The translations under genes were made by a program, and so were the position numbers. The notes under the pieces were generated by a model, which saw only the letters and a program-made list of their open reading frames with translations, made no database searches and was not told the DNA's origin. From Octopus sinensis (lineage: Eukaryota), in contig NC_043017.1 of the NCBI RefSeq assembly GCF_006345805.1, forward strand, positions 16,740,001 to 16,804,000: a DNA stretch of 64,000 bases, given 5' to 3'. This document shows, one piece after another, positions 923 to 63,861 of the stretch; positions within the stretch are counted from its first letter, which is position 1, and each line of letters starts with the position of its first letter.

Positions 923-1393
923 TCATATTTTACGTAAATGAAGGAGATTAAATGTTAAAATGGATGATAATTTTTTTATTCATGTAGCTATACAATCGTT
1001 TCATGCAGAAAGACAATAAATTCATTTTAAGAATTTGTATTGTCAAAAAGTACTTGTCAGCAGCCAAAAATACGAAAAAAGCTAATAAAACTTTAAGATT
1101 ACACAGGTATGGTGTTCTTACCCATTTTTGTAATGTGTTATTGTTCTTGGAATCATGTCTGTTTAAAACAAGACTTGACTCCAAGAACAAAAATGACTAA
1201 GAACATCATACTTATGTAATTCCAAAGTATTATTAGCTTTTTTCTTATTTTTGGTTACTGACGAGTACTTTTTGACATCTCAAATTCTTAAAATGAATTT
1301 GTCTTTCTGTATGAAACGATTGTACAGCTACATGAATAAAAAAAATTATCATCCATATTAACATTTAATCTTCTCCATTTACGTAAAATATGA
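923..1393. repeat. Foldback palindrome (~470 bp), MITE-like
   Basis: tcatattttacgtaaatg...ggatgataattttttattcatgtagct pairs with agctacatgaataaaaaaaattatcatcc...catttacgtaaaatatga; inner arms ttgttcttgga / tccaagaacaa. Confidence 0.9.
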
Positions 1394-15325: not shown

Positions 15326-17674
15326 CTGAAAAATCAATCAGAAAAATGAGTCAGTAGACAGATTACATATATTTTCCACTTTGCAGGGCTGGCAAAATAA
15401 ATAACAGTAAAGCACAAGAATATTTCTTTCTAAACAATTTGACTGTAACTGGATAAAATTCCACTGCTGAAGCTAAAGATCTTGCCAACAAATTAATGGA
15501 AGTGTAGAACATCCAAACAACAGCAGCAGACACAAAATGCAGAACCACTACCAGGAGAAAGAGAAGCTGTTCAATATTGGGCCAAAGTTGCCAGACTTAA
15601 AACTAGAAGTTCTCAACCACCAACCAAGACCCTTCTCAACCTGCCATGAACACAGATCAGAGATCACTCTCTAAAGATCTTTGCAAAATATTACACAAAT
15701 TTTAGACACAAAATGAAGCCTTATAAATATTTAGGAAATGACAGAAATGATAATTCACTGATATTTCTTGTGTCAGCATCTTGTCATGATGTAATTACTG
15801 GAACACTCATAGATTTAACATCTCCAAAAGTTAAAAAACAAAATTATATATAAAAAAAAAAAGATGAAATATTTCCTTATCAAAAATGATAATGATACTA
15901 CTGTGCATCATTCCCTGACCGAAAGTATCTACCAATTCAAACATACAGTTTGACATTCCATGTTTGGTAGATATTCAATATGTAGGCACATTCGCAGTCA
16001 CACTTTTTTTTACCTTATGGTTGATTATAAACAGTTGGGACTGTGTTAGGAAATAAGAGATTTCTTCAGCCATAGCAGTCATTCTATTTCAATGGTGTCA
16101 ACTTATCTGCTGTACCTACCAACAACTGGATTAGGAAACATTCAAGAAAACCAGCTGGGTCTGCCTGAAACAATGTCAGAATATTGTGACAGGCACCAAG
16201 CAGAAAGCTTCATCATGCCAACTTCATTGTGTAGAATATTCTCAACCCTCTCGCAGGATATGCTAATAGCATCGGCTCTTTGATTTATAGTCATTGCCTG
16301 TCATCGAACACCATGTGGTAAACATGGTCAAGGTCTTCCTCAGTTGCAAGACATCCAGATGGTGGGTCATCTTCAACACTCGCTTCCTCTCCTAAATTCA
16401 GCTGCCCGCTTTTGCTCTGTTAATAAAACTGGAGCCCGTCTATGAACTTTTCATCCCACTCTCGCATCAAGGTTCTTGATGCCAGGTTTATCCCAGCTCT
16501 AAACATCAACAATACCTCCACTGCTACTATAATTATTATCGTCAGTCTCCATCATCATCACTACTGTCCCATCACCGAATTTATTCACCTGATTGGCGTT
16601 AGGAAGGGCATCCAGCCGTAGAAACACTGCCAGATTTGACTGGGCTTGATGAAGCCTTCTGGCTTCACAGACCCCAGTAGAACCGTCCAACCCATGCTAG
16701 CATGGAAAACGGACGCTAAACGATGATGATGATGATGAGAGGAAGTAGAAAAGCAGTGAACGAAAAGGAAAAAATAACCAAATAACTGAAACCAGCTGCT
16801 TTTCGTAATTTTCCCTTTTCTAATTTTAAATTTGAAAACGACACACTTTTTTGTTGTTCCTAATAGATTGCATTAATTAATCTCAGCACAAATGAATAGA
16901 GATAAATACAGAGAAACACCAGCCAAAAGGATTAGTCTGGCTATTTTATGCTAATCTTATAAGCTACTTTAGTGTTAATGTTACATCAGCCAAATGACAA
17001 GAAATTCAGAAAAAGATACCCTATTAAAACAATCCACACACCCAAGCCATCACAACATTCTATATTAAAAGATAAAAATCCGTTGTTGCATAAGAGTTCT
17101 TTATTTCTGATTCAAGAATGCAAAGTAGATCTGCTCAAGACAGTAGTTGTTAGTGTGGTTTAGTTCCAAGGTCTCTCTGATCGAGCAGAGAGCTATGATC
17201 AAAGACATTCCTGTTATGACCATCCTATCTTTTCCCCATGTGCAGGGAACTGAAAACCTCGTTATCCAATGTGTCCTTTCTAAGACATCATCTAACGATG
17301 ACATACTGGCATAATATAAGATAATTTTCTCCAGACCTCAACTCCACTAGCTTCAATGAATGACTTGATAGTTTGAAAGGTGAATTAGTCGTTAAGGATA
17401 GAATTACTTAATGTGATTATTGCAAATAATTTGCAATCACTGCATAGTAACATGGCACAGATGATACCAAGATACTATTGCACAGACTGTTTTACTTTGG
17501 TATAGCAACCTGCAGAAAGACAAAGTGGCCAATTCAAAGATGATTTGAAAGGAGAAATATTAGTGTTAGAAAATACAAGGATGCCACAATGTGAGGCCAG
17601 CTTTATGGCAAACAAAGCGAGTGGTGTCCTCAACAAGGGTATTGAATTTTTATGCAGGTTATGAAAGCACTTAA

Positions 17675-17895
17675 CCCTTTAGCATTTAAACCGGCCATAT
17701 CTGGCCAAAAGTATTCTGCCTGTTTTATGTTCAAACTGGCCATATCTGGTCTCTCACACCAACCCTACAATATCATTTTAAAAATTAACAGTTATCTCAT
17801 CAAAATCTCATAGCTACAAGATAATGCATGATTAATTCAAAACAATGTGGATGAAAAAAAATTAATTTTGGCAGAATAATGTGACCACTAAAGGG
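17675..17895. mobile_element. piggyBac-type MITE
   Basis: TTAA|CCCTTTAG ... CTAAAGGG|TTAA; related decayed copy in opposite orientation at ~27085-27222. Confidence 0.85.
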
Positions 17896-18134
17896 TTAAA
17901 ATTGCTTTTGGCTGTGTTAAGAACATCCCATTTGGTAGAAGAGGGTTTCAGCCACACCAGTCTCTTGCTGTCTCAAAGTAGAAACAGGCTGAATATACCA
18001 TGGTAAGGTGACTGATTTGAAACCCAATATCTCTGTATTGGTGTTGTTAAACCAACCACAGATATCTAAAGAATCTTGTAACATGACAACTTCTCATATT
18101 TATTGTATTATTTTGGTATAGGAATGTTAATTAT

Positions 18135-18358
18135 GAGCTGGCAGAAATGTTAGCATGCCGGGTGAAATGCGTAGCCGTATTTCATTTGCCATTACGTTCT
18201 GAGTTCAAATTCCACCAAGGTTGACTTTGCCTTTCATCCTTTCGGGGTCAATAAATTAAGTACCAGTTATGCACTGGGGCCGATGTAATTGACTTAGTCC
18301 GTTTGTCTGTCCTTGTTTGTCCCCTCTGTGTTTAGCCCCTTGTGGGTAGTAAAGAAAT
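18135..18358 (+). mobile_element. SINE family D
   Basis: gagctggcagaaa...ctgagttcaaattcc...ctttcatcctttcggggtc...ccccttgtgggtagtaaagaaata; fragments at 32757-32830 and 43700-43770 (-). Confidence 0.8.
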
Positions 18359-18623
18359 AACTTTGAATGTATTTTTCTATTTCTATATCTTGTCATTCTT
18401 TTAGTCAGAAGATGAAAGGCAACAAATTATATGATACATTTATATTAATGGCCAATTTATGAGTGTCTGTCCTTGTTTGTCCCCTCTGTGTTTAGCCCCT
18501 TGTGGTAGTAAAGAAATAACTTTGAATGTATTTTTCTATTTCTATATCTTGTCATTCTTTTAGTCAGAAGATGAAAGGCAACAAATTATATGATACATTT
18601 ATATTTAATGGCCAATTTATGAG
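18305..18623. repeat. ~159-bp direct tandem duplication
   Basis: gtctgtccttgtttgtcccc...ggccaatttatgag occurs twice, differing only by 1-nt homopolymer indels. Confidence 0.9.
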
Positions 18624-25229: not shown

Positions 25230-25798
25230 CAGACTGGTGCCTGGTGCAGCCTCCTGGCTTTCCAGACCCCAGTCGAACCGTCCAACCCATGCTAGCATGG
25301 AAAACGGACGTTAAATGATGATGATGATGAAGATATATATATATATGTATGTATATATGTCTGTGTATATATATATATATAATGAGAGAGAGAAAGAGGC
25401 ATAGTATACCATGTTTAACGTAGAAAATTATGAAGATAAACTGCAGGTAATTTTGAAATACCTATAACTAAGTTTAGGTTTATTTCACACAAATTTTAAT
25501 ACAATCTTTTATATATTTTCTTAAGCCTTTTCTACACCTGCAAGTCTACATTTAAATCTGAAAAATCAGGACGTATCAGTTTGAGGTCATATATGGTAGT
25601 GAATGTGTGAATGGAGATAGATTATTAAGACAAAATTTTCAATGCATAATATCATTTCAAGAAAATTTTCATACCAGTTTTGGATGTATTCTGACAGATT
25701 TAATCTTAACAGGAGCAGAATATACTAGAAATATTTCTCACTAAACCTTCAAGTTAAATAAAAGCAATAAAAATAGAGTTTATTTATTTATTTATTAA

Positions 25799-26875
25799 CC
25801 CTTTCGTTACTATATTTCTGACCAAAATACACCCCTTATGTGTTTCAATTAATTTCTAACGTAATCATAAATTTAGTCTGGTTTCATTAAACAACTATAA
25901 CTTTTTTATTTATCAATATACTAACATGAATTTTGGAAGATAATTTAATGAAATGTTCTCAACCAATTCTATACTATAATTTTTGTCACAAAGTGACTAA
26001 TTGCAGGTAGATACAGGTAAATTCAACAATATATAAAATTATTAAAATTTTGTTCAAACATCGCTAGAGAAAATGGGTTATTAGCTAATATTCAATTGGG
26101 TATACAACAAAATTTTACGATAGAATTTGTTATTCTGGGTAACTTTCTGATACCCATAATAATATTTATGGCAAAATAGGCCTTAATTTCATTTAAGGTT
26201 GTGGGAAATAACAAACTATCCTTTCTTTCGCTTTGTTTACGTTTAGCGTAACAGTTCGTTTCTGCCGTAATGATTTCAAATAGGCTCATTCGAAAAAGTA
26301 AAACGAAATAGTTTAAGGCTTTACTCTTCTGGGAAAGTCTGTGGCTTGGTCCAGTTTCTTCAGAAAAATCACCGAAAGAAACAATTTTAAAATTTTCACT
26401 CCATTCAGGTGCCAATTCATTTTCTTTATCGCTGTCGGAGATCTGAGATTCACTGTTTTCACTTTCGGAAAATGAAACATCAGATTCATTATCAAATACC
26501 ACATGCTTTTTTTTTTTTCAGTCATAGAGTTAGATTTATGAAGGTCTTCAGTAGAAAATCCTTCGAATTCTGACTCGCTGCTTGATATAATGAAATTCGT
26601 ATCCATTTTTTGTCAGAATTACAAATTTTGAAAACACAATAGGAACAAATTTCGGAAAAAAATCTCCCATAATACACGGAATTAAAATTACACTTCGATT
26701 TTTGTACAAAACTGTAGTTGAACTGTTTACGAAGTATAATACGTGTTTTCACGAATGTACTAAAGAGATTTACTCTGATATTCTCATTTAAATATGAATA
26801 GGTAAATTCGGGCGGTTTGGGGCAGCTTGGTCACATTAACCAAAATTTTTTTCGGGCGGTTTGGTAACGAAAGGG
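25799..26875 (-). mobile_element. Internally deleted piggyBac transposon with N-terminal transposase remnant
   Basis: TTAA at 25795-25798 and 26876-26879; 12-bp TIRs CCCTTTCGTTAC/GTAACGAAAGGG; subterminal direct repeat TTCGGGCGGTTTGG x2; ORFs 26313-26606 (acidic N-term) and 26092-26502 (LFEIITAETNCYA...TTLNEIKAYFAINIIMGI) resemble the PGBD/DDE_Tnp_1_7 N-terminus; frameshift near a poly-T run. Confidence 0.9.
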
Positions 26876-27443
26876 TTAAAGCGGTATATTTCCCACCATA
26901 ACCAAGAGATCTGGCTATGTGTTTTTAACTATTTAGCATTTGAATCACTTGATGTTAGGAAGGGCCTCAAACGGCAGAAACTGAGCCAAAAAGAAGATTG
27001 GAGCTTGGTGCCGCTCTCCATCTCTGGTCAAACCATTTAACCTATACCAGCATGAAAAATGGACTATGATGATGATGATTGCTTCGAATTAATCAAGCAT
27101 TATCTTGTAGCTTTGAGATTTTGATGATGTGATTGTTCACCCTACATTGTAGGGTAGGTGTAAGAAACTGGATTTGGCCAGTTTGAAGTGGAATATTTTG
27201 GCCAGATATGCTGAAGGGTTAAAGTAATAACTTTAATAACTTATTCTGTTGAGAGCTTATGAAGAGCTACAAAAATGGAGAGAGAGTAAAAATAAGGTAG
27301 AACAATTCACTAACAATAACTTCTATAGTTCAGGTGTGTATTTCTAGTTTATATGTAAATAGGGTAGATTTGATATGATGGTAGGCAGTGATTTGTTATA
27401 ATTTATTTTAAATCTCTGAGTGAGGTATATACAGTAACAGTAC

Positions 27444-27789
27444 CAAATAGTAATGTTTATATGCCAACAGAATGTGGCAGTCCTATATAGGATGATGCTA
27501 CTGTTGTTTTAGCCCCGGGAATTGTTTTTCTCTATATGAGATCAGCAACTGTGTCGCTTATAGAATATATAGCATTTGCGAGTGGAGAAAGCTCATACTG
27601 AGGATGGGTAACCACCCAGAAACCTATGGGCTAGAGATGGGAGCGATGACCTCCCTTGCAAATTGCTATACGGACACAGAGTGTGTGTCGATAGCCAGCT
27701 GGAAGAGATGCTTTCCTGGGGCTAAAACCAGTAACAGTGCCCTTTATAGGGCTGCCACATTCTGTTGGCATGTAAACATTACTGATTTG
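27444..27789 (+). ncRNA. Rod-like ~345-nt inverted repeat with a hammerhead-like motif at 27591-27631 (retrozyme-like)
   Basis: Arms caaatagtaatgtttatatgccaacagaatgtggcagtcctat / atagggctgccacattctgttggcatgtaaacattactgatttg; ttttagccccgggaa / ttcctggggctaaaa; ctgtgtc / gacacag; tatagcatttgcgag / cttgcaaattgctata; apex GCUCAUA-CUGAGGA-UGGGU-AACC-ACCCA-GAAAC-C-UAUGGGC. Confidence 0.7.
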
Positions 27790-28804
27790 TTATTTAGGGT
27801 AAAATTCTTCAAGCAGAAGAGATTAAGGGTCTTTTTTTTTCCCCTAACAAAAGGCACTGGACCATGGCTGGTAATACACACAAGGAAAACTAAGCGACTG
27901 CCTAGGGTACTGAAATTTAGGGGCCCCACATAAGTTCAAAACAATTAAAATAGAAGTTCTTAAACTACAAAAAAAATCACAGTACTAAAAAGAGCAGGGA
28001 TGGTTACCCTTGGAACAGAGTAGGATGGGGGGGGACAGGCTTGAGGGGGAAAGGGAGGAGGAGGAGAGGGTTGTGTAGTATCTTGAACTACAGTTCTTGT
28101 TTGTAAGGTTTTTCAATTGTAATTTTCAGCTGGTGTAAAGATGATGATGGTAGAATTTCTAGAAACCGCAGGGCTGAGGGAAGTGGGTGCACGTTATCCA
28201 GCTGAGAGATGGGGAGCACATTGTAAGGGTAGAAGGGTGCAAACATGGGGGAGACGCGCACATTATAGAAGTCGGGGGTGGTGGATTGTAGGGCTTGGAG
28301 AAGGGAGGGGGGGGCATTGTATAGTTGGGAAAAGGGGGCATGCACTGCAGAGCTAGGAAAAGGGGGAGCACACTATAGGGCTAGACGAAGGGAGTGGTGG
28401 GAGAGGGGGACACATTTTGTAGGGCTGGGAGAAGGAGGGACGAATTGTAGAGCTGGCCTAGGGTGTTGAATATCCTGACACTGGCCCTACACTGACCAGA
28501 GATTTTTTTTACTCTGTGTCATGTACCAATATACTTCAACTTTTATTGAATTAACTTCTGCTGATGCATAGTGCAAATAAGTTAACTTGAATTTAGTAAT
28601 GTTAGGAATTGCTGGAACATGTTAATTACACTCAGTGTAGATATCAACTTCGAATAGTATAAATATTCGTTGGATTAAAGCAACCCAAGATTTGTGATAG
28701 GGAAAATTGAAAAAAAAAAAATTATTGATAAATAAATAGAAATTGATAATACCAGCTTCCAGCTGCTTTTTTTTAGCCAATTACAGCTTGGTAAATATCC
28801 TTAC

Positions 28805-29050
28805 CTTTGGAGATTCTTTCTGAACTCTTACTCCTTGGTGTGCTGGCTTTGGGTACTTCCAAGGGAACAAACCCAGGCAGCGTCCCGGCTAGACTGGCTG
28901 GGCGAGGTTTTCGAGGGGTTCGCATTTCTCGTGGCTTGACTGGAGCAGATGCTGATGGTGAGGACATGTGCAATCCTGTGGTACTTTTGGTCCGGTGAGG
29001 TGTAACTGTAGCTAGAAAAGAGCGACGTTTTTCGGGGATGGTGTTGAGGG
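28805..29050 (-). CDS. MAP7: MAP7-like exon, Ser/Pro/Arg-rich linker
   Basis: Acceptor ccccacag|CC, donor G|gtaagg; 246 nt, phase 1->1; LNTIPEKRRSFLATVTPHRTKSTTGLHMSSPSASAPVKPREMRTPRKPRPASLAGTLPGFVPLEVPKASTPRSKSSERISK. Confidence 0.85.
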
Positions 29051-29609
29051 CTGTGGGGCCGCCATAGGTGGTGGAAAAGAGAAAAATTTTAATTAAGGGT
29101 GTTCATTGGAACTAATTTAGTTCACTTTTTTTTTTTTAATTCTTTTTAGTTTGTTTCTAACTGGTATAAGCGCTAGAAACTACACCAGCAGCCCTCCACC
29201 ATCAGCAAGATTTTAGGGGTAAGAAGTACCGCCGAATAATTAGATGAATTTCCACTTTAAAAAAAGAAGCAGTGTTAATTGATTGTCGCTGAAATATTTC
29301 ACTTTAAAGAAAAGGATGAAATATTCAACATTTTTGAGTAAAAGCAGAAAAAAGTGCAAAAAAGAAATTTATGCTACCAAAAGGAGGAGGAAAAGGAGAT
29401 ATTATTTAGCTACAATTTGAACCCACAAAAAATTCTTCCAACAATCACCACCACCACTGTTGACCACTTTTACAATCAATAAATAAACAACAGATGCAAA
29501 AACATAATGATAAAAACAGTATATATATACACACACACATATATATATAGTATATGTATATATATATATAATGTGTATGTATATATATATATATAATATA
29601 TAGTGTACA

Positions 29610-44362: not shown

Positions 44363-46097
44363 CTCTAATGAGTCACGAGGCATATAATGAAAAACATCTA
44401 GGGCTCTAGAATCCTAACCACAAGAACCAAACAAATGCATAACACTTGGTAAACCAATATGTATTCCAGAGGGATGTGGAAGCCCCAAAACAAATCTGAA
44501 GATAAATGGTAATATTTCTTTCTTTGTGATGTCTTGTCGAAATAACCCCATGAGGAAGACTGAGAAGGATTGAGAAAAGTAAGGGAAAGGATTCATGAAA
44601 ATACAACACTCCAAATGACTGTAAATGCCCCCCATGTAACCATAGTAATTTGGGTAAGTGTGCATGTGTGTATAAAATAAAAAATATTAGATAATGTGAT
44701 TCAAGGGCTGAAAGATCAAAAACATCCAAAGAATAATGTGCAGCTGAAATCTCCATCCTGTTACCCAAAGATTAAGTGCCTGGTGTTTTCCCCCAACAAC
44801 CTTGCCCCTACTGTGTGCTCATCTCATTTCATGGTCCCTATTGTATGTGTTTATCACCACCAGCAACAGAAAGTCTTCATTTCCATTAGACCCCTGCTTC
44901 CACACAAACTACTCCCTGCTAATACTGATTAAATAGACTTGCAATCTGTGGGTCCTCTGCTTCTCAGAAACAAACCAAAACACCCAGAAGAAACCTGAAC
45001 TTATCCCCCCAAAACGCATTTATGCACACACGAAAACAACGATGAAAGAAGCTACTTTGATGATATTTCTAATCTAAGTTTCCGTTTCATTTCTGAGTAG
45101 TGAAACAACCAAGCAGAAGCATGATCCATGTGCTCTTCTACTGCAGCACTGTGTACCGTCAGAGAGAATTATAAAGAAGTCTTCCAAGTGAATGGAGTCA
45201 CAATGGTCATTAGCAACACAGTAAGTCGTTATTGAAACTAATTTTACAGAGAGAAAAAGATGTTACGAAACACGAATAATTTAATTTATATTAACATTTT
45301 CTAGTTTATGCATAAGGGTGAGAGAGAAGAAATGGCTGGAATGGATAACAAACAGGTTCTATGAAGTGCGAAATTAATGAAACACAGAAGGGGATTAGAT
45401 TTGAAGATGACCCACCATATCTACATTGGCTACACTTCATCAGAAAAAGCACGGTGAGGGGACAGAAGGGTCGGCTGTTTTTGTTTTTCACTACTTACAT
45501 GGAAAGATGGATTGGACAGGAAAAGGAATATTACGAAGGAGAGAAAAAGTACAGGCATTGCTGTGTGGTTTAGAAGTTTGCTTCACAACCAACTGGTTGG
45601 TTGCTAGGCACAATCCTACTCATAGCCTTGAGTTGGCCAGTGCCCTTGTGAGTGGCATTTGGGAGGTGGAAACTGGGTAGCTATCCACTGTGTGTGTGTG
45701 TGAGTACTTTGATTTTAACAAAGAGGAGGGAAAATACTCAATATCATAGTAGAGAGCAATAGTTTAAGGCTAATACTGTTTGAAGAATGATAACATACTG
45801 GGGAAATAATGACCACTAGTTCGAATCAGAAGGGGAGAGAGAGAGAGAGAGTGTGTGTATTTATGTGTGTGTGTGTGAAAGAGACAGGCAGACACTGTGT
45901 GTGTGTCTTTTAATGGTGAATACTGGAAAGAGATTTAAACACTGGTGAATCAACCAATAAACAGGTGCTTTCAAACAAATTGCCAAGAGGTATTTGTTCT
46001 GCTTTAGTTGTGCAGATAATTTCTTGCTACAATAGCCATTGTAAATGAAGTGAAATAGCAACTGGCCTCCTGGAAACCTGTAACCAATGGTGATATT

Positions 46098-46217
46098 TAC
46101 ATTATTTACATTTGACGGATTTGTTGTTAACATGTTTCGGCTGATATACCCCCCAGCCTTCATCAGGTGTCCTGGGGAAATTTCGAACCTGGGTTCTAAT
46201 CCCTAAGGTAATTTTCA

Positions 46218-46254
<37 letters not shown>

Positions 46255-46506
46255 TCACTGCCTAGAATCGAACTTGGAATCTTAGGGTTAGTAGCCCATG
46301 CTCTTAACCCCAAGATTCCGAGTTCGAGTCCAGGCAGTGACCTGACAGCAACAGCAACAACAACAACGAAAATTACCTTAGGAATGAGAACCCAGGTTCG
46401 AAATTTCCCTAAGACACCCGATGAAGGCTGGAGGGTATATCAGCAGAAACGTTGTGTTAACAACAAACAAGATGAAGAGAAATATCTGTCAAATGTAAAT
46501 AATGTA
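46098..46506. mobile_element. Head-to-head inverted pair of a tRNA-headed element with a hammerhead-bearing tail
   Basis: ~200-bp arms in inverted orientation; each has a B-box-like AGTTCGA(T/G)TC, a trinucleotide spacer, and GACAC-C(T/C)GATGA-A-GGCTG...CAGC(C/A)-GAAAC. Confidence 0.75.
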
Positions 46507-46742
46507 CATAATTCCTCATCTCTTAAATATAGAACTGAATGATGTTTACAAAAATGGACATAAAAAGAAGAGGGCAAAGTCAAGAAAAAGAAAGAGAAAA
46601 AAAAGAGAGAGTAGGGTGTGTGTGTGTGTGTGAAAGAGAGAGAGAAATGCATGGAAAATGAAGAAATTTAAGATACTAATAGTTTAGATACTAATAGAAT
46701 AAATACTATTCTGTTGACAAATAAAGCTAAACAGAAAGATAC

Positions 46743-52705: not shown

Positions 52706-52761
<56 letters not shown>

Positions 52762-52769
52762 ATAATAAT

Positions 52770-53300
<531 letters not shown>

Positions 53301-55049: not shown

Positions 55050-55925
55050 AATGTATTGATTACCAACCTCCAGTCTGTTGTTAATTTGGGGCCCTAGTCT
55101 GTGTATGAGTATAGCTTCCTTAATTCTTAAATTACCCAAATTTCTTTCATTGGCCTCAATTGTGACTGTTATGCTTTTGTCGGTGTTCCAGCATGTCTAG
55201 ATGTTTTCCAAAGGAAGAGGCTCTCGTGTTCAGATGTTCTTTGATGCGGACGTGTAACAGTCATGTTGTGCTACCCACATAGAACTTGTATTTGTTACAC
55301 TGTATTCTATACACAACATTTACCCGTTAGCATAAATCTGTGTCATGGATGGAACAGTTTGTTGTCCCTTGTTTGTTTCTCAGAGAGGGGCCGGAGTGGG
55401 CTAGTTGTATGTCTAGCCCTTCTCTTCTTATGGCTCTTCAGATGGATGTAGTCACCCTCTTGCTAAAATGGGGTATTTTAAGGAGACATGTGTTGCTGGA
55501 TTTTGTATGTGTTCGGCATGTTGGTCGTCTTGGGTACTTAAACCGATTTACAATGGATCCAGGGTACCCGTTGGTTTTCAATATATCTAAGAAGTGTGTA
55601 GTGTGGGTCACCTTGTCCTCCGTTCTGCTGCACTTACCCTGGATGCGTGCAAGTTCATTTCTGGTATATCCTATTTTTTGGCACCAAGTGGAAGTGCTGA
55701 ACTGTATTAGACAAACGTATCTCTACTGGATGCTTTCCTGTAGAACTCAGTGTGGATCTCACCTTCTCCTGTTATATTCAGTTTGAAGTCAAATAGTGAT
55801 GGCAGGATATTCTATAGTGAACTTTATGTCCATGTCCATGTTATCGAACGTCGTCAATGTTCTGTCAGCCTCTTCAAAGGAGGATGTGAGTTTGAGGATG
55901 TCATCTAAGTACCTGGTAAAGAAGA
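55050..55925 (-). mobile_element. Penelope-like element relic (RT plus GIY-YIG endonuclease)
   Basis: Minus-strand FTRYLDDIL (~55900), KFYVGSTT*LLHVRIKEH (~55260), IEANERNLGNLRIKEAILIHRLGPQINNRLE (~55100). Confidence 0.8.
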
Positions 55926-55954
55926 CTTCTATCTATCTATCTATCTATCTATCT

Positions 55955-63422: not shown

Positions 63423-63459
<37 letters not shown>

Positions 63460-63462
<3 letters not shown>

Positions 63463-63861
63463 TAGAAAAAAACCACCTTTATCAATTCAAAATGAACAAT
63501 TAAATTACACCATCTAGAAAATTACATATAATAGAAGTATTAAAATTAAAATAATAATATACCGATGATTAAGTAAATTGCAAAATAATAATAAAAACGT
63601 ATATATTTGGTAGAATAACCATTTTAATTTTTATTTTTTATAATTATTTTGCAATTTGCTTAATCATTGGTATATTATTGTTATTTTATTTTTAATATTT
63701 CTATTATATGTAATTTTCTAGATGGTGTAATTTAATTGTTCATTTTGAATTGTTAAAAGGTGGTTTTTTTCTAATTTTTATATATATATTATATTTTGTG
63801 AAATTTGATTTAGTATTTCTAAACTGAATTTTTCCCTATAAGCTAGGAATAATATTCCCTC

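Follow-up and report, generated by a model that had tools for sequence, protein, structure and literature searches.

A decayed hammerhead-bearing repeat in an intron of a MAP7-like gene, probably inserted as forward and inverted pieces by Penelope-like element enzymes

The foldback at positions 27444-27789 of the window (the whole 64,000-nucleotide stretch of Octopus sinensis DNA analysed here) belongs to an element that spans 27400-27783. This element, probably a decayed member of a high-copy repeat family with a hammerhead, is composed of forward and inverted truncated pieces and was likely inserted by the enzymes of a Penelope-like element (PLE). The original prediction had described a 345-nt rod-shaped retro-RNA. 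Its multi-copy, retro-type and hammerhead-bearing character is retained here, but the rod as an RNA selected for pairing is not, since the junctions vary among copies. Judged from sequence features, the element would work like members of the PLE/retrozyme kind and is classified as a candidate retrozyme only.

Extent and parts of the element

The element is flanked by an 11-bp direct repeat, TGATTTGTTAT, located at 27389-27399 and 27783-27793 (no strand assigned). It is the longest direct repeat between both ends, and the first base of its right copy is also the end base of the element. We interpret it as a target-site duplication; no empty allele was seen among the contigs. The repeat coincides with the ends defined by other copies, whose pieces have their left termini at 27397-27406 and their right termini mostly at 27782-27783 (chance about 2e-5, with ±3 bases allowed per end). 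The boundaries 27444 and 27789 could not be upheld. Namely, 44 bases on the left had been missed, and the last five on the right lie in the target duplication, from which the outermost five pairs of the rod had been drawn.

From left to right, the element consists of a one-sided 49-nt extension of the inverted copy, or 'tail' (27400-27448, minus strand); a second copy of the 3' part of the family unit, inverted and truncated at its 5' end (27449-27521, minus strand), which forms the long outer stem with 27712-27783; and a forward copy of the family unit (27522-27783, plus strand), which is non-coding, carries the hammerhead domain and displays repeat depth along its full length. The arms pair from 27449 with 27783 inward to 27521 with about 27712. 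Terminal inverted repeats are not present at both ends, the 49 nt on the left having no pairing partner at the right end or elsewhere within the element.

Neither a second copy nor a tandem repeat of the element was found within the 64-kb window. Compared with 1.84 billion representatives, the open frame of the element gave no match to a PLE protein or to any other named protein. Word-index protein searches with this frame and, at shorter lengths, with the related predicted ORF P0002 (see below) also gave no match, and no link between the element and a PLE ORF emerged from the protein searches with the open frame.

Copies, depth and junctions in the repeat family

The family was surveyed in public contigs from four of 24 listed runs at 80% likeness: X2 (organism A); X8 and X3 (both organism B); and X20 (organism C), the reading of X3 as RNA being a guess. 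The expected multi-copy repeat was recovered, with a rough depth of hundreds to about 1,400 times that of the flanks in three DNA-type runs from three organisms. In eleven bins covering 27406-27779, the depth in X2 was 380, 894, 766, 105, 48, 41, 226, 418, 1417, 527, and 25 single-copy units; the profiles of X8 and X20 had the same shape. Summed contig depth does not equal copy number and is taken only as 'hundreds to about a thousand'; the repeat is a family of roughly 10^3 copies, present in three organisms. Most contigs of the arm segment were placed on the left arm because the two arms are alike. The tail is less deep than the arm in X2 (about 380 versus 770-890 single-copy units).

Instead of the one rod that had been proposed, two pieces meet at 27521/27522. 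Other copies depart from the window sequence at 27512-27521 and pass into the reverse complement of 27709-27629, so this junction belongs to the present copy. At least nine joints of the left arm to a forward copy were found elsewhere, in a listing whose main table gives 15 of 108 joints, at 27533, 27631, 27633, 27634, 27637, 27639, ~27665, ~27666, and 27677; the positions ~27665 and ~27666 are approximate, their letters having been read by eye, and five joint rows had no printed strand. Because the point at which the halves meet differs in other copies (among the joints listed), the long outer stem was likely made at insertion, unlike that of a viroid-like rod, and the palindrome is likely rebuilt each time. 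Accordingly, the copies are not uniform with a constant interior: inversion junctions vary among the joints listed, and depth is graded.

A head-to-tail joint, from the tail end at 27406 to 27552, was present in X2 and X20 (two of the four runs) and was not among the joints listed for X8 and X3. The predicted ORF P0002 reads through four diverged head-to-tail units of 59 codons (177 nt) resembling 27667-27765 plus tail-like sequence. In one of three frames tried, none of 500 shuffles reached the arm likeness of any of the four units, and 0, 7, 1, and 401 of 500 reached the tail likeness. P0002 and P0004 are near-identical open frames of 225 codons, whose tandem units lack the hammerhead domain; the depth peak at 27678-27711 lies where units of this type start. 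P0002 belongs to no family in Pfam or the ESM Atlas, and its frame is likely spurious over a satellite, although the frame that stays open is also the one open in the window. P0003, with 54-aa tandem units (35% over 20 residues), was treated as a chance match.

Folding and mismatch statistics

The foldback at 27444-27789 is real, with a free energy of -168.1 kcal/mol on the plus strand (z = -15.2; none of 100 shuffles was as good). The minus strand scores nearly as high (z = -13.4 against its own shuffles). The plus strand had been expected to be the more stable one and is so by 15 kcal/mol, but the shuffled controls of the two strands already differ by 11 kcal/mol, likewise in favour of the plus strand. 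For the inner 191 nt, z equals -3.0 on the plus and -2.6 on the minus strand, the two being about equal. The forward copy 27522-27783, a partial unit of less than a full monomer, gives -3.3 and -3.2, respectively.

The outer stem has 62 Watson-Crick pairs in 71 aligned columns, 5 G-U pairs, 2 A-C and 2 other mismatches. The proposed excess of G-U over A-C mismatches disappeared on testing, both in this stem (5 versus 2, p = 0.45) and in the whole foldback (12 versus 5, p = 0.14); the G-U/A-C counts of four other palindromes in the window are 7/8, 6/13, 5/6, and 4/0. The locus-flanking contigs of X2, X8, and X3 have C in place of G27772, the G of one G-U pair; for G27751, the G of another, 743 of 1353 depth units in X2 read A. 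The G-U bias of the outer stem is neither significant nor conserved.

Outside the inverted duplication, the only stem that belongs to the repeat unit is an inner one of about 20 bp, within which the hammerhead lies. It pairs 27568-27587 with 27651-27670 (span 27568-27670, plus strand) and was recognized from fold predictions and shuffles, 1 and 6 of 2000 of which reached its score. An internal duplication of the 3' part of the element at 27532-27578 was rejected, as 184 of 2000 shuffles scored equally.

The four other long palindromes of the window (923-1393, 46094-46510, 52706-53202, and 63440-63794) are unrelated in sequence. A hammerhead motif is lacking in all four, as are duplications of at least 7 bp other than TA runs.

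Hammerhead-like core

The hammerhead motif has the composition that had been described: CUGANGA and GAAA boxes with helices I and II, helix III/NUH being missing. This type I hammerhead-like core, identified by motif scan and shuffles, occupies 27590-27632 on the plus strand. Helix I (27590-27597 with 27625-27632) comprises 8 contiguous pairs including G-U; the CTGAGGA box lies at 27598-27604 and the GAAA box at 27619-27622; helix II has 5 bp and a 4-nt loop. Between GAAA and the 3' strand of helix I there are just two letters, CC. A scan of both strands of the 64-kb window found no other motif of this kind, the chance rate being 0.003-0.007 per 64 kb (300 shuffles), and none of 20,000 shuffled elements contained it. 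The minus strand was free of hammerhead motifs in the window scan, so the ribozymes of both polarities seen in viroid/HDV-like RNAs were not found here.

The predicted cleavage position is after 27624. Reading the core as a minimal hammerhead (CCUA after GAAA) was rejected, since helix I then has only 2 pairs versus 8. Because the canonical register lacks helix III/NUH and the minimal one retains 2 pairs in helix I, this copy is predicted to be inactive under either, and the earlier view of it as probably inactive is thus likely correct. The covariance-model search that had been suggested detected neither a hammerhead nor any other credible Rfam family at gathering score (window) or at E values up to 10 (26900-28300). 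None of the rows listed for the four runs showed a copy with a complete core.

One other copy (X8 record 28) spans 27592-27728 with a net gain of seven letters, whose position within the copy is not given. The orthologous contig of organism B has 40 extra and 3 missing letters relative to the window, up to 34 of the extra ones being unplaced. In X2, the only contig covering 27630 has a depth of 23, half that of the flanks (44-50), which may reflect heterozygosity of the X2 individual for an indel close to the hammerhead.

A pattern scan of metagenomic sequences gave two matches, both to one bacterial coding sequence, and an 18-mer scan of prokaryote genomes gave 21, none extending beyond 29 bases; all were judged to be chance matches. 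Viral contigs gave none in the pattern scan.

Starts of forward copies near the predicted cut

In five of the nine joints listed, the forward copy begins at 27631-27639, that is 7-15 nt past the predicted cut, and is preceded by 1-22 foreign or inverted-arm letters. Also, depth drops five- to tenfold across the hammerhead motif. Under a uniform model for the joints listed, p equals 3e-4 for that bin and 4e-3 across all bins, and restriction to the stretch after the cut (five of eight joints listed) gives 5e-3 or 3e-2; the test is post hoc, and the gap in the core of this copy also breaks alignments at that point.

We offer, as a conjecture on which we would not rely, that these are copies from a retrozyme-like family of cephalopods with about a thousand members, whose forward halves would start after the cut because PLE reverse transcriptase copies ribozyme-cut RNA in vivo; only dead or uncut ribozymes would then be read through. 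The anole PLE differs in this respect: in the accessible part of that study, the element did not depend on hammerhead cleavage in vitro, and the cut site was not the start of any read (PMC11167929).

Host gene and RNA editing

The placement of the element antisense to MAP7 was confirmed, the hammerhead lying on the plus and the MAP7 exons on the minus strand. The name MAP7 derives from a weak Pfam hit (E = 7e-4, below the cut-off) on an exon other than 28791-29057. The latter, the nearest upstream exon of this MAP7-like gene (minus strand, ends approximate), has an open frame with a 97% match to an unnamed predicted protein, and the element sits about 1 kb into the intron that follows it. No RNA record containing the stretch is on file, which carries no weight as to its expression.

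The window has a G+C content of 37% with abundant TA microsatellites and dispersed repeats. The same intron houses a piggyBac-like relic at 25795-26879, with TTAA-flanked inverted ends and a DDE_Tnp_1_7 match on the minus strand (E = 5e-8). Beside the element, at ~27080-27222, there is a very high-copy, TTAA-ended small element (X2 depth up to 800,000) with an inverted relative at 17671-17899. Five imperfect G-rich repeats spaced by 28-44 bp occur at 28276-28435, between the element and the upstream exon, and a near-perfect 159-bp tandem duplication (98%) at 18304-18623.

One 2390-nt RNA-type contig (X3 record 20) spans the locus unbroken and is unspliced through the intron part 27108-28100; it has a net 37 letters more than the window, most of them unplaced. 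Nine of its 20 substitutions are T-to-C changes within 27743-27779, or A-to-G on the MAP7 (minus) strand. The orthologous DNA contig (X8 record 32) carries five other changes and none of these nine, seven of which are absent from every DNA contig examined. T-to-C changes affect 9 of 15 T in 27742-27783 versus 0 of 162 T in the X8-covered flanks (p = 1e-11), where the flank count omits two T-to-C changes common to DNA and the RNA-type and DNA contigs represent different samples. The left arm of the hairpin has no such changes. The cluster is likely due to ADAR editing of the intronic hairpin, provided that the guess of X3 as RNA holds. Editing of repeats in cephalopod introns is described as ordinary in the accessible text of Albertin et al. 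(2022, PMC9068888). The A-to-G cluster in an intronic repeat hairpin resembles the ADAR-edited inverted repeats of cephalopod introns and UTRs reported there, but comes from one contig only, compared with DNA of another sample.

Comparison with Penelope-like elements and retrozymes

In the available portions of the PLE literature, insertions include a copy that is inverted and truncated at its 5' end, one end may bear a tail of 30-40 bp, and the end repeat houses a hammerhead (PMC8557442); head-to-head palindromes and duplications of 8-10 bp are also described (Arkhipova et al., 2013, PMC3846280). Reverse transcription that begins at two internal positions accounts for the tail, and cleavage occurs on both strands at ATT-type sites (Frangieh et al., 2024, PMC11167929). 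The present element likewise has a head-to-head, inverted and 5'-truncated copy (27400-27521 versus 27712-27783) with junctions that vary among the joints listed, a target duplication in AT-rich DNA (11 bp versus 8-10 bp), a one-sided tail, although of 49 nt rather than 30-40, and, shortly upstream of the 3' ends, a hammerhead-like core that lacks helix III/NUH. The suggested tie to Penelope-like machinery is thus likely to be correct: the inverted truncated copy, the tail and the duplication of about 10 bp fit PLE anatomy. The ORF of the anole PLE starts at hammerhead stem II, in the text available (PMC11167929); an ATG occurs at 27604 here, at the start of helix II. Unlike in PLE insertions, no ORF separates the halves and the open frame has no protein match.

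Minimal PLE hammerheads, as far as the accessible part of PMC4209133 covers them, have a helix II of 7-8 bp, a helix I of 4-5 bp and G10.1-C11.1. In the present core helix I is longer, helix II is shorter and U-A occupies the base of helix II, which places it nearer to the canonical type. PLEs make up 6.83% of the Octopus vulgaris annotation (PMC13282606); ribozymes are mentioned neither in the accessible text of that report nor in its supplement. Among short motifs of the element, one chance 10-mer only was encountered in the supplements of PMC13282606 and PMC8557442. No hammerhead or ribozyme element of octopus, cephalopods or squid was reported in the literature searched, which omits most subscription papers.

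A decayed PLE relic lies at 55068-55929 (minus strand) of the window. It reads from the end of the reverse transcriptase region into a GIY-YIG match (PF01541, E = 2e-4, just below the cut-off), so endonuclease-bearing PLEs were once present in this genome. The relic has many stops and frameshifts, its 5' end is at a TCTA microsatellite, it shares no sequence with the element, and no hammerhead motif was found near it.

According to the accessible text of Cervera and de la Pena (2020, PMC7229834), animal retrozymes consist of tandem units of 150-450 bp, contain type I hammerheads, have long duplications and give rise to circular transcripts. Their derivation from PLE end repeats has been proposed in the available part of Li, Clavereau and Pollet (2026, 10.64898/2026.07.22.740005). 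The element shares with non-LTR retrozymes a small non-coding unit, a type I hammerhead-like core, a long target duplication, dispersed decayed monomers and some sign of a head-to-tail arrangement. It differs in being an inverted pair rather than a tandem and in its incomplete core; the complete type I hammerhead by which retrozymes are recognized is lacking in this copy. The accessible retrozyme texts give no example from cephalopods. A retrozyme-like family is possible, in view of the head-to-tail joint and the related 177-nt tandem array, but partial tandems are also normal for PLEs. Viroid-like and HDV-like circular RNAs differ from the repeat described here, which is high-copy genomic DNA with a target duplication.

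Origin of the element

Mutator-like elements generate target duplications of 9-11 bp. A foldback DNA transposon (a MITE, for example a Mutator-like one) with a chance or captured hammerhead-like stretch would explain the 11-bp duplication and the long inverted arms, the presence of four other palindromes in the same window, and a family depth that is mostly outside the hammerhead (about 40-50 versus 400-1,400 single-copy units elsewhere in the family). We regard this origin as unlikely, because the one-sided 49-nt tail means that the ends are not mutual inverted repeats, the centres differ from copy to copy at many positions, there are tandem units as well as a head-to-tail joint, and the motif is rare by chance.

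Even less probable are fragments of a 177-nt satellite or a SINE-like repeat with the hammerhead in a minor subfamily, whose inversion arose without PLE enzymes, through DNA repair or template switching. The target duplication, the dispersed single-copy contigs and the recurrent head-to-head junctions point instead to endonuclease-primed retro-insertion. The tandem units of P0002/P0004, which are devoid of the hammerhead domain, and the depth peak at their start (27678-27711) suit such a satellite, but satellites built from PLE ends are themselves described, in the accessible part of the same preprint (10.64898/2026.07.22.740005). The weakest candidate, with very little probability left to it, is the original one of a whole 345-nt rod acting as a self-cleaving circular RNA with plus-strand pairing under selection: for all its z of -15.2, its 15 kcal/mol below the minus strand, its five G-U pairs in the outer stem and a real inner stem around the motif, the passage from 27521 to 27522 does not continue in other copies, shuffled sequences show 11 kcal/mol of the strand difference, the G-U bias is not significant (p = 0.45) with two of the five G unshared by other contigs, and the rod ends sit inside the target duplication.

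An insertion by PLE enzymes, the preferred reading, would proceed as follows. PLE reverse transcriptase and GIY-YIG endonuclease would insert the element into AT-rich DNA nicked on both strands. Reverse transcription would start inside the RNA at two nearby sites, producing the end at 27783 and the tailed end at 27400, and two short cDNAs would grow inwards, halt at different points and be joined head to head. A perfect palindrome would thus arise at insertion and then decay. The hammerhead of an intact family member would cleave multimeric transcripts immediately past position 27624, where many copies begin; the present copy runs through the motif, likely since the ribozyme of its template was already broken or uncut. 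Within this reading, the template would be somewhat more likely a non-autonomous retrozyme-like unit of approximately 330-400 nt (a size deduced here), and somewhat less likely a pseudo-LTR stump of an autonomous PLE. The present role of the locus would likely be only that of an intronic double-stranded stem in MAP7 pre-mRNA, edited by ADAR.

Implications

The element provides an example of an insertion-made palindrome mistaken for a viroid-like rod. Hammerhead-bearing Penelope ends and retrozymes are a known kind, and the present finding adds a probable octopus to their hosts. What hammerheads do in PLEs is described as unclear in the accessible text of Craig et al. (2021, PMC8557442). The pile-up of forward-copy starts at the cut site, if truly due to copying of ribozyme-cut RNA, would offer a genome-only test of hammerhead function in Penelope-type retrotransposition, an open question, and would matter more if it holds genome-wide; cephalopods would then join the animals with ribozyme-made RNA circles. 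Every such insertion puts a ready-made ADAR substrate into an intron.
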